DNA from: an uncultured Candidatus Saccharibacteria bacterium
GTDB lineage: Bacteria > Patescibacteriota > Minisyncoccia > Phycocordibacterales > UBA9973
DNA length: 64,000 nucleotides
Direction: 5' to 3'
NCBI GenBank assembly: GCA_964626965.1
Contig: CAZVHB010000001.1
Coordinates: 1,818-65,817 of the forward strand
Numbering within the stretch: the first letter of the stretch is position 1; the number at the start of each line of letters is the position of its first letter. The notes under the pieces are model-generated. The model was not told the origin of the DNA. It searched no databases and saw only the letters and a list, made by a program, of their open reading frames with translations. This document shows, piece after piece, positions 4,837 through 59,425 of the stretch. Made by a program: the position numbers and the translations under genes.

Positions 4837-4947
4837 ACCTATATATATCAATAAAAAACGAGCAGAAAGACATTGACAAATAATACTTAATATGCTATAC
4901 TCTAGACAAATAAACAATATTCCAGAAACTCTAAAAAACGATAAAAG

Positions 4948-6049: not shown

Positions 6050-6077
6050 TTGACATAAATTTATAAATTGATATAAT
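6050..6077 (+). promoter_or_regulatory. Sigma70 promoter TTGACA-16-TATAAT, 8 nt upstream of the ATG at 6086 (leaderless or near-leaderless)
   Basis: Exact consensus hexamers. Confidence 0.7.
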
Positions 6078-6085
6078 AGCTTTAT

Positions 6086-8959
6086 ATGAAAAACATATTT
6101 ACAAAAATTAGTTCAAAAGCATACATAGGCGCACTTGCGCTCTTTTTGGCTTTTGGTCTTACAAGCCAAGCATATGCTGGCGCAGTTGCATGGGCAGGTC
6201 CAACAGAGTTTGGTACTATCGCTAATGTTACCGGAACATCAATCGTCGAAAGTAGTCCTTATACACCATTTTCTTATGCAAATACATCTTCTGCGTCTGC
6301 AGGTGATAAAGTTGCGGTTATTGTGTATTTCCACAATAAAGGAAATGCTGCATCTCCAAACACATATATTAAAGTAAATAAATCAACCAACGGCTCTGCC
6401 TCTACGTTTACATTTACTGGTTCTGTGTCTGGTGGTGGAGCTTCAAAATCTGGCTCAACAACAGTGAACCTTTCTTCTAGTCAAACACTCACGTATATCC
6501 CAGGATCACTACGCGTTAGTAAAGACCGTGCTCCAGTAGGGTACTCAGTATCAAATGATACAGACGTTTTTTCAGGTGCTGGTCTTGATATTGGGATGGT
6601 ACAAGGAATGGATACTTGCGGAACAGACGCACTCTGTCACCAAGGTTCTGTTGCACTTGGATTTCAAGTAAGTTCAACTTCTACAACTCATCTTTGTTCA
6701 AATGGACAAGATGATGACGGAGATCTCCTTATCGATATGAATGACCCAGGATGTACTGACCCAACTGATGATAATGAATACAATCTTGTATCACCACTTG
6801 TGTGTACAATCAATTCTTTCACTGGATCACCTTTGACTGTTGCTTCTGGTGGATATACAAATCTTTCATGGAACACAACAAACTGTACAACTGTTACTGT
6901 TGATGGATTTACCTATCCTGTCGATGGTAGTGGAAATTTTGGCCCACTCTTTGTCGGTAAAACATACTATCTTGCTGCTTCAAACGGAACTAGTACTGAC
7001 TCAGAAACAGTCTATGTTGGTGTAAATACTGTTGCTTCAGCATGTACAATTGATACATACTATGCATCACCAACTACAGTAACTTCAGGTGGATATACAA
7101 CAATTTATTGGAATACATCAAACTGTACGACTGTTACTATCGATGGTATGCCTCAGTCAGTAGACGGAAGTAATTCTTTTGGTCCGATCTATTCTGGTAA
7201 AACATACAACATTGTTGCGTCAAACAGTACAAGTACTGATTCAGATAGTCTCTACGTTGGAACAAATTCTGTAAATAACTGTACGATTGATAATTTCTAC
7301 GCATCACCATCTACTGTTTCTTCAGGGAACTACACAACACTTCATTGGAATACATCAAACTGTGACCAAGTGACGATCGACGGTATTACTTATTATTCTG
7401 TTGATGGAAGTGGATCTTTTGGACCACTCTACAGTGGACGAAGTTACCAAATCCAAGCATGGAAAACTAGTCAATCTCCAGTTTCTCAAACAACATACGT
7501 ATCAGTTGATACATACTCTTCAAACAACTGTAGTATCGATACTTTTTATGCATCACCTACAACAGTAATCTCAGGTAGTACTACTCAACTCTTTTGGAAT
7601 ACATCAAACTGCGACCAGGTTACTGTTGATGGTATTAATTATGGTGTTGATGGAAGTGGTTATTTCGGCCCACTCTATAGTGGACGAAGTTACGTGCTCA
7701 ATGCGTGGAAAAATGGTCAAACTGTACGTACACAAACAGTCTATGTTGGTGTAAATTCTGTCAATAATTCATCTTACGCATGTAATGATGGGTATGATAA
7801 TGATGGTGACGGACGTGTAGACTATCCAAATGACGCTGGTTGTTACTCATCAACTGATAACGATGAATACAACTATGTTGCACCAGCTGTTTTGAATACT
7901 GTTGTGACAACACTCAACCCAAGTAATCTTACATCTTCTTCTGCACGTTTGAATGGATCTATCTTCAATGGTGGAAATAATGCAACTCAGTTTTATTTTG
8001 AATGGGGAACAGATACAAATTCTCTTCCAAACAAAACAAATTCACAAACAACCTTTTCAGATAATTCAGTAACGTACTTTGATACTGCATACAATCTTTC
8101 AACTGGTGTTACCTATTACTATCGTGCAGTTGCACAAAAAAGTAATGGAGTGGTCATCCGTGGCGATATTAGACAATTTCGCTTGATTGAAGTGGTAACT
8201 CCTGTATTTACAAATACAGTGACACGAGTAGTTACGGTGCCAGCTCCAGTAGTACAAGAGAGAGGAGTAGTTGTCGGACTTGGAACAAATCTTGTACAGC
8301 TTCGATATATTACGAATGATATCCTTAGTACAAATACTGGTGGTTTTGGAATCACTCAAACTGGTATCAATCAAAATGTAAACAATGGTGTACAAAATGT
8401 CTGTGTTGATGACAGTATTAAATTTGTTGTTGAATACAGAAATATCTCAACAATTACACTTAATAATGCAATCCTTCATATTGATATTCCAAAAGATGTC
8501 GACTTCCGAAGTTCATCAGCCGGAGTATTTAATAAAGCAGACAATACTATCACTATCAATGTAGGAACACTCACTCCTGGTCAATCAGGTCAAGTATCTT
8601 TCGACGGAATTGTTATGAGTAGTGCAGCAAATCGAGATCTTCTCGTTGTCCCAGCAACACTCTCATTTGAAAATCCAAACAATGGTGCTCGAGAAACAGC
8701 GATTGCGTACGGACTCGCAACGACTCAAAACTGTATTAAAAATGGGGGACTTGCCGGATTCGCATTCGGTTCAGGATTCTTTCCAGATACACTCTTTGGA
8801 TGGTTGCTCTTAATTCTCGTACTCCTCGCTCTGATTTACCTTCTTCGAAGAATGTTTATGGTGTATGGAATCGGACCAAGATCAAAGACCACAACCACAA
8901 CGACTACACAAAGACATTACGAGGATATGGATATTCCAACAGCGCCATACCAACACTAA
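6086..8959 (+). CDS. Large cell-surface protein (957 aa): signal peptide, 4 tandem ~80-aa repeats flanked by Asp-rich CxxGxDxDGDG motifs, a fibronectin-III-like domain, a DUF11-like domain and a C-terminal TM anchor
   Basis: Repeats CTIDxFYASPxTVxSGxYTxLxWNTSNC..VT.DG..Y.VDGSG.FGP.YSG. Also NATQFYFEWGTD (fn3-like), TPGQSGQVSFDGIV (DUF11-like) and a C-terminal GSGFFPDTLFGWLLLILVLLALIYLLRR. Confidence 0.75.
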   Translation: MKNIFTKISSKAYIGALALFLAFGLTSQAYAGAVAWAGPTEFGTIANVTGTSIVESSPYTPFSYANTSSASAGDKVAVIVYFHNKGNAASPNTYIKVNKSTNGSASTFTFTGSVSGGGASKSGSTTVNLSSSQTLTYIPGSLRVSKDRAPVGYSVSNDTDVFSGAGLDIGMVQGMDTCGTDALCHQGSVALGFQVSSTSTTHLCSNGQDDDGDLLIDMNDPGCTDPTDDNEYNLVSPLVCTINSFTGSPLTVASGGYTNLSWNTTNCTTVTVDGFTYPVDGSGNFGPLFVGKTYYLAASNGTSTDSETVYVGVNTVASACTIDTYYASPTTVTSGGYTTIYWNTSNCTTVTIDGMPQSVDGSNSFGPIYSGKTYNIVASNSTSTDSDSLYVGTNSVNNCTIDNFYASPSTVSSGNYTTLHWNTSNCDQVTIDGITYYSVDGSGSFGPLYSGRSYQIQAWKTSQSPVSQTTYVSVDTYSSNNCSIDTFYASPTTVISGSTTQLFWNTSNCDQVTVDGINYGVDGSGYFGPLYSGRSYVLNAWKNGQTVRTQTVYVGVNSVNNSSYACNDGYDNDGDGRVDYPNDAGCYSSTDNDEYNYVAPAVLNTVVTTLNPSNLTSSSARLNGSIFNGGNNATQFYFEWGTDTNSLPNKTNSQTTFSDNSVTYFDTAYNLSTGVTYYYRAVAQKSNGVVIRGDIRQFRLIEVVTPVFTNTVTRVVTVPAPVVQERGVVVGLGTNLVQLRYITNDILSTNTGGFGITQTGINQNVNNGVQNVCVDDSIKFVVEYRNISTITLNNAILHIDIPKDVDFRSSSAGVFNKADNTITINVGTLTPGQSGQVSFDGIVMSSAANRDLLVVPATLSFENPNNGARETAIAYGLATTQNCIKNGGLAGFAFGSGFFPDTLFGWLLLILVLLALIYLLRRMFMVYGIGPRSKTTTTTTTQRHYEDMDIPTAPYQH
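6803..7774 (+). repeat. Four tandem ~240-bp (79-83 aa) intragenic repeats
   Basis: Each repeat starts with a TGT (Cys) codon, at 6803, 7043, 7280 and 7529. Confidence 0.8.
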
Positions 8960-25233: not shown

Positions 25234-25307
25234 GCCCATCGACTTCGATTCATAAGCCCTTGCGAAAGTGAGGGTTTTTTTATTACCCAAAATAGAGTAT
25301 AGTGTGT

Positions 25308-25632
25308 GGGTTGCACAGATACACGCGCTCTGCCTTAAAACAGAGTGAGGAAAGTCCGAACACACCTACAGCAATGTAGAGAATGGTAGTGGGTAATACC
25401 CATCCGTAGTAATACGCGTGGTGCGAGCAGTGACGCCAATGTCGAAAGGCTAGGCATCCTTCGGGATGATGCCTCTCGAGAGAGAGGAGTGAAACGGCTA
25501 AATCCGTACTTGTGTGCAAGATCGCGTCTGAGATAGAAATATCGAGGAAGAATCGCTTGAGGTAGATAGTAATGTCTATCCTAGATAAATGTGTATACTA
25601 GACAGAATTCGGCTTATCGTGTGACGTTATAA
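25308..25632 (+). ncRNA. rnpB: RNase P RNA (bacterial type, reduced)
   Basis: P4 5' strand GAGGAAAGUCCGAAC and P4 3' strand ACAGAAUUCGGCUUA with the expected single-nucleotide bulge. TATAGT lies upstream and a terminator follows. The ends are approximate. Confidence 0.65.
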
Positions 25633-25665
25633 AAAACACCATTGAAAGATGGTGTTTTTTATTTT
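25631..25665 (+). terminator. Rho-independent terminator
   Basis: aacaccattgaaagatggtgtt followed by ttttatttt. Confidence 0.8.
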
Positions 25666-25753
25666 CTGGTAGTGAATTTTGCAGAAGCGATTTTTTGTCG
25701 CGTTATATAAACATCGTCAAAATCTACTATCGGGTTTGTGATATAATTCTTAT

Positions 25754-26242
25754 ATGGAACGTATCGTAAAAATATATAAACACATATTTCATTTTTTTGA
25801 TAGATTAGAAGACCATGTTCGTGGATTACTTTCAAAATATCCTATCTGGTATGCAATTCTTGCAGGTATCTGTATTGTCCTTTTTTGGAGAGGTGTATGG
25901 CACACAGGGGATAGTATTCAAGCCAGAGGAGGGTTTTGGGGATTTATTTTCTCTGGGCCAATATCACTTGCGCTGAGTACTATTCTTCTTTTGGTTATCG
26001 GAGTCTTTGTGTCTGCTTTTGTTGGTGACATGCTTGTTCTCTCTGGAATAAAAAAAGAAAAAAAGATGGTTGATAAGACAGAAGAAGAAGTGAGACAAGA
26101 GGGAGGTGAACTCGAGCAAGTAGAACAGGTGATAGATGATTTGTATGAAGAAGTTGATGAGGTGAGTGATAAGCAAGAGGTATTAGAGAAAAAGATTGAT
26201 GAACAAACGGAACTTTTGAAACAGGTTCTCAAAAGAGATTAA
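25754..26242 (+). CDS. Hypothetical membrane protein with an acidic coiled-coil C-terminus
   Basis: Two TM helices, then an E/K-rich heptad region. Confidence 0.5.
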   Translation: MERIVKIYKHIFHFFDRLEDHVRGLLSKYPIWYAILAGICIVLFWRGVWHTGDSIQARGGFWGFIFSGPISLALSTILLLVIGVFVSAFVGDMLVLSGIKKEKKMVDKTEEEVRQEGGELEQVEQVIDDLYEEVDEVSDKQEVLEKKIDEQTELLKQVLKRD

Positions 26243-26447
26243 AGTCTTGTTATGTGTCGTCTTTTCTGACACTACTAGCCTCTCACTCTAAGCCCTCAAA
26301 GAAAAAGAATTGTTAAAAAGAGAACTGTTTGAACGAAGTGAGTTTTCGCTTTTTTTAATTCTTTTTCTTCGAGGTGAGTAAAAGAGGGTAGTGTGTCTTG
26401 ATTTTTTTGTTTCTTTTTTACATCTAAGGTAAAAAAGAATGAAAAGG

Positions 26448-26476
26448 TTGACAAATAGACCCTAACCTGCTATACT
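26448..26476 (+). promoter_or_regulatory. Perfect sigma70 promoter TTGACA-17-TATACT with no downstream CDS
   Basis: Consensus -35 and -10 with an exact 17-bp spacer. The next feature downstream is a terminator about 50 nt away. Confidence 0.6.
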
Positions 26477-26482
26477 CTTTTT

Positions 26483-26555
26483 GTGAGATAATACTCCTTA
26501 AAGTAATATTGCACAAATGCCTCACAAAACACCCGCAAGGGTGTTTTGTGTTTAT
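26483..26555 (+). ncRNA. Candidate small RNA (about 70 nt, or about 135 nt if it reads through to the second terminator at 26620)
   Basis: Bounded by a consensus promoter and the intrinsic terminator cacaaaacacccgcaagggtgttttgtgttt. No ORF of at least 60 aa. Confidence 0.35.
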
Positions 26556-26581
26556 GGGCAACCTAAAAATAGTGTAATAAG

Positions 26582-26620
26582 AAAAAGTGGGGCAACTATG
26601 TTGCCCCACTTTTTCTTGTT
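26582..26620. terminator. Bidirectional terminator that also ends efp
   Basis: aaaaagtggggcaac-tat-gttgccccacttttt. Confidence 0.8.
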
Positions 26621-26635
26621 TCTATAAATTGTATT

Positions 26636-27217
26636 CTAATTCGCCCTCTCTACATACTCACCATTTTCTGTATTGATACGAATTTTCTCTCCTTCATTTA
26701 AGAACATTGGTACAAAAATTTCTGTACCATTTTCCAAGATAACTGATTTTGTTGCATTTGTCGCGGTGTTACCTCGTACTGCAGGTGCAGCTTCTTTGAT
26801 AATGAATTCCATTTTGATTGGGATTTCTACTGATACGATGATACGATCTTCATTTTCATTTTCAAAAATTTTCATAGTCGCAGTCATTCCTTCTTTAAGA
26901 AATTTTACTTGAGGGTTCCCGATTTTGTCAGCAGGAACAACAAATCTATTTGCTGGATCTTGTGCGTCACAGAACCAGTATTCTCCTTTTGCATTGTACA
27001 GATACTTCACTTCACTTTTTTCGAGATCAGCTTCATCTACTTTATCTGAAACGTGAAAAGAGATTTCAAGTACTTTCCCAGTGAGGAGATTTTTAAGTTT
27101 GGTTGCATTAACCGGTTTTCGTTGTTGTTTTCTAAAAACATGACTCGTGATGACTTCATACGGTTCATCTTCATAGATAATAACTTTTCTTTCTCTAATT
27201 TCATTATATTCTAGCAT
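26636..27217 (-). CDS. efp: Elongation factor P
   Basis: ...NATKLKNLLTGKVLE..., three-domain length, KOW-like N-terminus. Confidence 0.85.
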   Translation of the reverse strand: MLEYNEIRERKVIIYEDEPYEVITSHVFRKQQRKPVNATKLKNLLTGKVLEISFHVSDKVDEADLEKSEVKYLYNAKGEYWFCDAQDPANRFVVPADKIGNPQVKFLKEGMTATMKIFENENEDRIIVSVEIPIKMEFIIKEAAPAVRGNTATNATKSVILENGTEIFVPMFLNEGEKIRINTENGEYVERAN

Positions 27218-27292
27218 ATATTGATATAGTACTTTTTTTTAGGCTAAAAGCAACCCCCGCATCACTTACATTTTTAAAATATGCTATATTGT

Positions 27293-43993: not shown

Positions 43994-44050
43994 GTGTAAT
44001 AAATATCGCATATATTCGTTATATAGTGTATAGTAAAGAAGAAGAACGTT

Positions 44051-44128
44051 ACCACCAAGGTTCATGAGCGACTGCACTCACATAGGCATTTGTGTTGGAG
44101 TCTGCACCCGCTCATGAACCTTGGTGGT
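44051..44128 (+). terminator. Unusually long hairpin (perfect 20-bp stem, 38-nt loop) followed by a T-run; terminator and/or structured RNA
   Basis: accaccaaggttcatgagcg ... cgctcatgaaccttggtggt, then aattttttt. Confidence 0.6.
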
Positions 44129-44401
44129 AATTTTTTTATTTAGAATTTTTATTTTCTAAATAAAAATTTCTCAATAATAAAATATTTTAAAAAAATAAAT
44201 GTATAAAAATATTTTTTTGAAAAAAAACTTTTATAAAAAATAAAAAAAGTTTTCCACAGTTTTTATTTTTTTTTCAAAAAAACTATTTACTTTATTTTTG
44301 TATATACGATAATTAAATTATCAAGTACATTTAGTAGCATTAAAAATATTTTTGCGAAGGTCGGTGTACTTATTTATTACTAATTGCATGCAAACAATTA
44401 T

Positions 44402-44530
44402 ATGGCAGCTAAAAAAGCAAAAAAGAAAGTAGCTAAGAAAGCAGTTAAGAAAACTGTAAAAAAAGTAGCTAAGAAAGCAGTTAAGAAAACTGTAAAGAAA
44501 GCAACAAAGAAGGTAGCGAAGAAAAGATAG
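44402..44530 (+). CDS. 42-aa Lys/Ala-rich basic protein (histone H1-like / Hc-like nucleoid protein). It is not in the ORF track because it is shorter than 60 aa.
   Basis: MAAKKAKKKVAKKAVKKTVKKVAKKAVKKTVKKATKKVAKKR. It contains an internal 36-nt tandem duplication and has its own terminator. The 82-aa minus-strand ORF 44321-44569 is its antisense shadow. Confidence 0.6.
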   Translation: MAAKKAKKKVAKKAVKKTVKKVAKKAVKKTVKKATKKVAKKR

Positions 44531-54159: not shown

Positions 54160-54201
54160 AAAGACCATATATTGACAAATATATGGTCTTTATGCTATAA
54201 T
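54160..54201 (+). promoter_or_regulatory. Sigma70 promoter TTGACA-17-TATAAT whose -35 element is centred in a 13-bp perfect palindrome (AAAGACCATATAT-N6-ATATATGGTCTTT)
   Basis: Operator-like dyad overlapping the -35. The MutS-like gene lies downstream. Confidence 0.55.
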
Positions 54202-54255
54202 AAGGAAAATATTTTCGTAATTTTTCAATTAAATAAACAATAAAATTCTATTCAC

Positions 54256-59268: not shown

Positions 59269-59338
59269 CTTTTGTATATAAATATGCTACCGTATAATAC
59301 CATATTTTTAGAGAAATAGATTTTTCTGTGTTTATATG

Positions 59339-59425
59339 CGGAAGAGGGGAGATTCGAACTCCCGGTGCGGTTTCCCGCACGCCACCTTTCCAAGGTGGTA
59401 CATTAAACCGCTCTGCCACCCTTCC
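59339..59425 (-). tRNA. tRNA-Ser (anticodon GGA), type II with a long variable arm; CCA is not encoded
   Basis: RNA sequence GGAAGGGUGGCAGAGCGGUUUAAUGUACCACCUUGGAAAGGUGG...GGGAGUUCGAAUCUCCCCUCUUCCG. Anticodon loop UUGGAAA, T-loop GTTCGAATC. TATAGC lies 7 nt upstream. Confidence 0.85.

Follow-up and report, generated by a model that had tools for sequence, protein, structure and literature searches.

The region between the gene for a two-TM membrane protein and efp, the gene for elongation factor P, is likely a small non-coding RNA gene. Its promoter, first stem-loop (SL1), linker and terminator hairpin (SL2) recur as one unit in at least 13 distinct Patescibacteria genomes. The gene lies in a stretch of 64,000 nucleotides (hereafter the window; G+C content 37.7%), the features of which are collected in Table 1. 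Transcription would start at approximately G26483, from a strong sigma70-type promoter whose -10 element is extended, and would stop at SL2, at approximately 26551-26555, affording a product of ~70 nt. The predicted RNA would consist of SL1, which begins with GUGAGAUA, an unpaired ACAAAUGCC linker and the terminator hairpin. SL2 would also end the mRNA of the membrane-protein gene. The core idea of an earlier note on this DNA, that a promoter-to-terminator unit gives a short non-coding RNA, finds strong comparative backing in the 13 genomes. From the sequence only, we infer that the ~70-nt RNA is expressed and acts in trans.

Table 1. Features of the window in and around the proposed small RNA gene.
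Feature	Position	Strand	Basis or remark
RNase P RNA, class A, with 15-bp terminator (25629-25662)	25307-25662	+	Rfam, 100.6 bits (threshold 100)
Two-TM membrane protein, 162 aa	25754-26242	+	ORF
Strain-specific 205-bp insertion	26243-26447	+	Absent in all relatives
-35 hexamer TTGACA	26448-26453	+	Promoter scan
Extended -10 TGCTATACT	26468-26476	+	17-bp spacer behind the -35
Predicted transcription start G26483 and stem-loop SL1	26483-26514	+	Fixed distance from the -10 in 13/13 genomes
Linker ACAAAUGCC(U), unpaired; proposed seed or binding site	26513-26522	+	Invariant in 13/13 genomes
SL2, intrinsic terminator: 12-bp stem, GCAA loop, TTTAT	26523-26555	+	Folds, inverted repeat
Bidirectional terminator: A-tract, 21-bp hairpin, T-tract	26576-26620		Inverted repeat, folds
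efp (elongation factor P), convergent	26636-27217	-	Pfam EFP_N/EFP/Elong-fact-P_C

The promoter, TTGACA-17-TGCTATACT, sits at 26448-26476, where the earlier note had placed it. The window copy has 11 of 12 hexamer matches plus the TG extension. The claim of the earlier note that no promoter in the window is better does not hold; four others (6050, 33873 and 54172 on the plus strand and 24512 on the minus strand) reach 12/12 plus TG, and the promoter at 4873 on the plus strand ties with it. The 64 kb hold six promoters that have the TG and match at 11 or more of the 12 hexamer positions, as compared to 0.18 in dinucleotide shuffles. This 30-fold enrichment means that promoters of such quality are not chance events, and other members of the class stand ahead of genes. 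Three of the strong promoters (4873-4901, 26448-26476 and 54172-54202) share a wider consensus, TTGACAAAT...(A/C)TGCTATAMT. Across the 13 genomes, the -35 hexamer matches at 6/6 positions in nine, 5/6 in three and 4/6 in one, and TGC followed by TATAMT is present in all 13 (one genome has TATATT). The spacer is always 16-17 bp long, its sequence being free to vary, and a discriminator of 6-7 nt, also variable in sequence, always precedes an invariant GTGAGATA. This is the geometry of a sigma70-type promoter, with hexamers 16-18 bp apart at a fixed position relative to the start. The unit also shows that intrinsic terminators and canonical sigma70 promoters of the extended -10 class are reliably recognizable in Patescibacteria genomes.

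The first 8 nt of the RNA, GUGAGAUA, are invariant across the 13 genomes, and the linker is single-stranded in all main-clade MFE folds. All homologues fold as SL1-linker-SL2, with z-scores of -4.3 to -7.0 and a single dominant fold each. Helix 1 of SL1 is 96.7% paired across the genomes, and the apical stem of SL1 is swapped for other paired sequences in three of them (L129, L132 and L133). SL2, which in the window is a perfect 12-bp hairpin at 26523-26550, is 100% paired. Seven pairs are changed on both sides, six of them within SL2, where they make up half of the 12 pairs. Standard pairs account for 98.5% of pair cells versus 92.4% in shuffles and 34-57% in slid-partner controls; the alignment used had itself been fitted to this structure, and the kinship of the sequences means that the shuffle statistics overstate significance. 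Because the basal stem of SL1 is nearly invariant, covariation gives little support to SL1 pairing. Most of the covariation is in the terminator, where it would also be expected if SL2 merely terminated the upstream gene.

With its compensatory G+C-rich stem and U-tract, SL2 has the makeup of an intrinsic terminator. A T5 run follows it in 10 of 12 relatives, and the window copy has only TTTAT, a weakened U-tract (UUUAU). A generic terminator scan of the window flagged neither this hairpin nor the one behind it; in the case of SL2, the TTTAT tail accounts for the failure. Both hairpins nonetheless lie where the earlier note put them; the 12-bp one spans 26523-26550 and the 21-bp one 26576-26620. 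The "C-rich loop" described there, cacccgcaagggtg, is in fact CACCC/GGGTG paired around a GCAA tetraloop at the top of the SL2 stem. This stretch was rejected as a seed, since it is paired and since outgroups carry GCCGCC-UUCG-GGCGGU instead, leaving no conserved single-stranded seed there. Mimicry of an anti-Shine-Dalgarno sequence by the SL1 loop CUCCUU was also rejected; the loop reads GCUUCUGU, CUUU, UCAGU, AAC or GACA in other lineages.

Conservation was assessed from 13 distinct copies, those of the window and of loci L002, L003, L119-L123, L127-L129, L132 and L133. The genomes that carry them are probably Paceibacterota. For the window itself, EF-P and the proteins encoded around it point to Patescibacteria (CPR), probably Paceibacterota; the names on the records of the relatives do not agree with one another. 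The occurrence of the unit in relatives, for which the earlier note had called, is thus established, and the unit is not peculiar to one strain. Identity to the window copy is 69-96% for the RNA region and 61-83% for the DNA of the adjacent gene. The membrane protein beside the unit is 48-87% identical to that of the window, and the 60 nt after the unit, at 42-51% identity, are unalignable. The RNA is better conserved than the protein gene next to it. As comparison across the genomes shows, promoter geometry, RNA sequence and both helices are under purifying selection regardless of what lies downstream. The unit has no fixed tie to efp, next to which the same note had proposed to look for it in relatives. 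It follows the upstream membrane-protein gene, and efp is inverted, displaced or separated from it in relatives. In L003, for example, the unit stands upstream of efp on the same strand, which indicates that it moves together with the gene upstream of it. When the intergenic region was compared by BLAST with efp loci of relatives, only the two closest genomes matched. In contigs encoding homologues of the membrane protein, the unit was found in every genome down to ~48% protein identity. In 78 efp loci from more distant Paceibacterota, a covariance model (R1) gave no score above 33 bits; those loci lack the membrane-protein gene, so this null result shows only that unit and efp are not linked. 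An exact 18-mer scan of metagenome contigs gave 37 matches, all unrelated and mostly to a human-gut element, and a gapped-pattern scan of viral contigs gave 67 matches, none of which scored with the covariance model. A clade boundary is marked by L134-L136, in which the membrane-protein gene (52% identical) is followed by a tRNA gene in the slot of the small RNA.

On the downstream side, efp converges on the unit, and the ORF list and Pfam place no plausible plus-strand CDS after it, in agreement with the earlier note. That note let the transcript end at either 26555 or 26620. The first, ~70-nt form is upheld; the second, ~135-nt form would be read-through into the efp terminator. The sequence of the hairpin at 26576-26620 is not conserved, and where efp is convergent in relatives, the hairpins at this place are unrelated. 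This hairpin is the terminator of efp, and as it is unconserved, the conserved product is the one of ~70 nt and the longer form only read-through. The hairpin would end efp transcripts and catch read-through from the small RNA promoter. The segment 3' of the small RNA is a rearrangement hotspot, in which efp is inverted between sub-clades, DUF167 is present or lost and genes are inserted (L003 and L124-L128 compared with the window, L002 and L119-L121, together with L122, L123 and L129).

The rival explanation taken most seriously in our analysis is that the unit is a cis-regulatory leader for downstream genes, such as an attenuator, a riboswitch-like element or a constitutive partial terminator. 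The window copy would then be an orphan relic that remained after the inversion of efp and the loss of DUF167. This explanation accounts for the commonest gene order, membrane gene, unit, DUF167 and efp on one strand (L003, L124-L128), and for a co-directional gene within ~25-180 nt of the unit in 9/13 genomes. It also fits the -10-like element before DUF167, which lacks a good -35 in genomes of the L003 type, and the gene that starts 65-70 nt past the terminator in L132 and L133, an OMP-decarboxylase/phosphoribosyltransferase fusion (pyrF/E-like). However, the genes found downstream come from no fewer than five unrelated families. Apart from the fusion, they include DUF167 (L003, L121, L124-L128), a 361-aa gene (L122), a 569-aa gene (L129) and a HEPN/nucleotidyltransferase pair, which is toxin-antitoxin-like, with a 501-aa gene (L123). 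Four genomes (window, L002, L119 and L120) have no same-strand gene downstream, efp being convergent, and yet the RNA is 88-96% identical among these four orphan copies. Neither a conserved anti-terminator pairing nor a conserved alternative, mutually exclusive fold was found, nor does any Rfam riboswitch or leader match. A candidate GUGAG/CUCAC anti-terminator switch was discarded; it is broken in L002 and would undo only 3 of the 12 stem pairs. Moreover, efp possesses a promoter-like element of its own whichever way it is oriented. By direct reading, a -10-like element lies 6-7 nt before the ATG of efp in either case and of DUF167 in L121. In view of this evidence, a leader is an unlikely explanation.

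In a second rival explanation, the conserved block belongs to the upstream side: it would do no more than supply the membrane-protein gene with its 3' UTR and terminator, and the promoter-like hexamers would be inactive or kept for another reason, for example to encode the C-terminus ...LLDK*. The unit was never found parted from the membrane-protein gene at any locus, and that gene would have to terminate at SL2; by direct reading, no other terminator lies between its stop codon and SL2 in relatives. In 7/13 genomes (L002, L003, L120, L122, L127, L129 and L133), the stop codon is inside the promoter spacer, and the -35 overlaps the last codons. In contrast, TGCTATAMT, the 16-17 bp spacing and the 6-7 nt to GTGAGATA lie outside the CDS and are conserved in 13/13 genomes. 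The -35 (TTGACA or TTGACT; 4/6 in L132) is also kept where the stop codon is farther upstream, by 5-45 bp in L119, L121, L123, L128 and L132 and by 205 bp in the window. Retention of the promoter in these six genomes means that coding constraint cannot explain it. In addition, a plain 3' UTR is not normally better conserved than its CDS. We therefore regard a mere 3' UTR as improbable. The sequence of the small RNA probably doubles as the 3' UTR of the membrane-protein mRNA, with a common terminator. This dual role is suggested by the stop codon within the promoter spacer in 7/13 genomes and by SL2 being the only terminator open to the mRNA in relatives.

The stop codon of the window gene is 205 bp ahead of the promoter because of the strain-specific insertion. 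The insertion holds an imperfect palindrome of ~130 nt (26268-26397) with a fold of -63.1 kcal/mol and a z-score of -5.5, and no second copy of it was found in the window or in the fetched loci. It could be a MITE-like element or an added terminator, and in the window its palindrome could end the membrane-protein mRNA earlier than SL2 does.

It is very improbable that the unit acts as DNA, as a protein-binding site or a hotspot of recombination or integration, rather than as RNA. SL1 is an imperfect palindrome in DNA, and the rearrangement hotspot lies just downstream. However, the plus strand tolerates G-U pairs (G5-U, G11-U), which points to pairing at the RNA level on that strand, and promoter geometry is conserved. 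Rearrangement is also expected beside small RNA or tRNA genes and would be seen for an RNA gene too. Least credible of all is a small-protein gene, starting either at the ATG at 26517 (MPHKTPARVFCV...) or as a leaderless GUG-AGA-UAA mini-ORF at the 5' end: the ATG and first ~12 codons are alike in most genomes, GUG AGA UAR is present in 12/13 and the organism seems to use leaderless mRNAs, but the ATG lacks a Shine-Dalgarno sequence, its ORF varies from 13 to 107 aa, is frameshifted in L121 and runs through the terminator to a stop that is always past the U-tract, the mini-ORF is broken in L133 (VRY*), and the substitutions are paired stem changes, not synonymous ones. In L003 (2634-2957) and L124 (3546-3869), a called DUF167 protein of 107 aa begins inside the small RNA and crosses the terminator. 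The linker ATG is in frame with DUF167 in these loci, which is why gene callers report 107 aa; the call is probably a mis-annotated 85-aa protein.

Searches for known families support the assignment to a new RNA family. At the gathering thresholds of Rfam 15, the window contains just RNase P RNA and a single tRNA. In a permissive search of 26200-26700, the best matches were snoR31 (37.2 bits, threshold 60) and L20_leader (29.1 bits, threshold 58.7), both driven by the terminators, and the DapZ model reached 15 bits against a threshold of 56. Rfam returned nothing at the unit in L121, L129, L132 and L133. ARAGORN, run for tRNA and tmRNA, found only tRNA-Ser at 59338-59425 in the window, and the 5' and 3' ends of the RNA are unable to form an acceptor stem. 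The RNA family is new, without an Rfam match, and its kind is familiar, a small RNA gene at an mRNA 3' end. A search of the available literature found no paper on small RNAs in Patescibacteria/CPR.

Small RNAs of the RybB/OmrA type are intergenic and trans-acting, with their own promoter and terminator and with seeds at the 5' end or in a linker. The unit resembles them in its predicted primary transcript of ~70-80 nt, in its invariant 5' end and single-stranded stretch and in the terminator hairpin with a U tail at its end. It differs in that SL1 hides the 5' end in a stem, whereas typical 5' seeds are open. A closer parallel in genomic placement is offered by DapZ, MicL and MicX of enterobacteria and Vibrio, small RNAs that arise from mRNA 3' ends and are transcribed from a promoter of their own, located where the upstream CDS ends (PMC9438474). 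Like these, the unit has a promoter that overlaps or abuts the upstream stop codon, falling in or across the 3' end of the upstream CDS. Its RNA is likewise short and carries a conserved unpaired stretch ahead of a Rho-independent terminator that it would share with the mRNA. The unit has no sequence homology to DapZ, its host is a Patescibacteria lineage and its link to the upstream gene spans much deeper divergence (membrane protein down to 48%). The tRNA genes of L134-L136 are similar in being short stable-RNA genes with their own -10 directly behind a homologous membrane-protein gene. In contrast to them, the window RNA is not recognized by ARAGORN or the Rfam tRNA model. Attenuators, riboswitches and ribosomal-protein leaders share with the unit a promoter, a short structured leader and an intrinsic terminator, and the L20 leader is the closest sub-threshold leader in Rfam. 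The unit differs from all of these in having no consistent downstream gene and no conserved alternative fold.

As to how the small RNA might act, base pairing through the ACAAAUGCC linker, the 5' GUGAGAUA or both is a guess that we hold only tentatively, and protein binding is the alternative mode. Duplex and k-mer target scans of the 64-kb window, about a tenth of the genome, and of the clade loci gave nothing above chance. The best complementarity in the window is an 11-mer, AGGCATTTGTG, at 44084-44094, of which ~1 is expected by chance. A recurrent 8-mer, GCATTTGT, in the membrane-protein CDS was rejected as a target; it is mismatched in the window, and its recurrence stems from a conserved SAFVGD peptide.

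In all 13 genomes, the unit lies directly 3' of a homologue of the membrane-protein gene. This strict linkage to one gene suggests a functional pairing. Homologues of the membrane protein number 352, mostly from Paceibacterota/Patescibacteria, and no Pfam family scores above threshold for the 162-aa protein. A bolder reading, which we consider rather doubtful, is that the RNA belongs to an undescribed lineage-specific CPR family that forms an obligate two-gene module with the two-TM membrane protein. If so, the module would have moved between stable-RNA neighborhoods, that of rnpB in the main clade and that of 23S-5S in L132 and L133. The RNA would then not be an ordinary stress regulator. It would serve a housekeeping or structural purpose or, alternatively, be paired with the membrane-protein mRNA in autoregulation, and it would work without any known RNA chaperone. 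Patescibacteria are uncultivated and their genomes are tiny, and a conserved ~70-nt RNA offers a concrete, testable entry point. Its ends can be searched for in existing metatranscriptomes, and the invariant linker of 9-10 nt provides a defined seed for comparative target prediction with full MAGs.

The membrane-protein gene lies among stable-RNA genes in three contexts, those of the main clade, of L132/L133 and of L135. In the window, the Rfam match to RNase P RNA spans 25307-25632, and its terminator is directly upstream of the membrane-protein gene; the order rnpB, membrane-protein gene, small RNA is also found in L129 and L121. In L132 (1-2425) and L133 (1-1200), the gene comes after 23S, which has a group I intron, and 5S. 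In L135 (650-2070), it starts 3 nt past one tRNA gene, and another tRNA gene comes after it.

Several genes lack a Shine-Dalgarno sequence and have a -10 element that ends 6-8 nt ahead of the ATG. Among them are efp, the membrane-protein gene (TGATATAAT-tcttat-ATG) and the two genes that follow the 12/12 promoters at 6050 and 24512, with sites at 25739-25756, 6050-6090, 24512-24470 (minus strand) and 27217-27240 (minus strand). These sites suggest that leaderless mRNAs are frequent in this organism.

The 11-mer belongs to the first of two further features of the window. On the plus strand at 44048-44131, after an M16-peptidase-like gene, is a hairpin of 84 nt that has a perfectly paired stem of 23 bp and ends in a T7 tail, for which Rfam has no family. 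Its apex, where the 11-mer lies, contains AGGCAUUUGUG, an 11-nt perfect complement of the invariant linker sequence CACAAAUGCCU; this site is partly paired in the MFE fold. At 44404-44529, also on the plus strand, is a short ORF for a repeat protein rich in lysine and alanine (MAAKKAKKKVAKKAVKK...) of histone-like or DNA-binding composition; an extremely A+T-rich intergenic stretch of ~260 bp precedes it, and a terminator follows.
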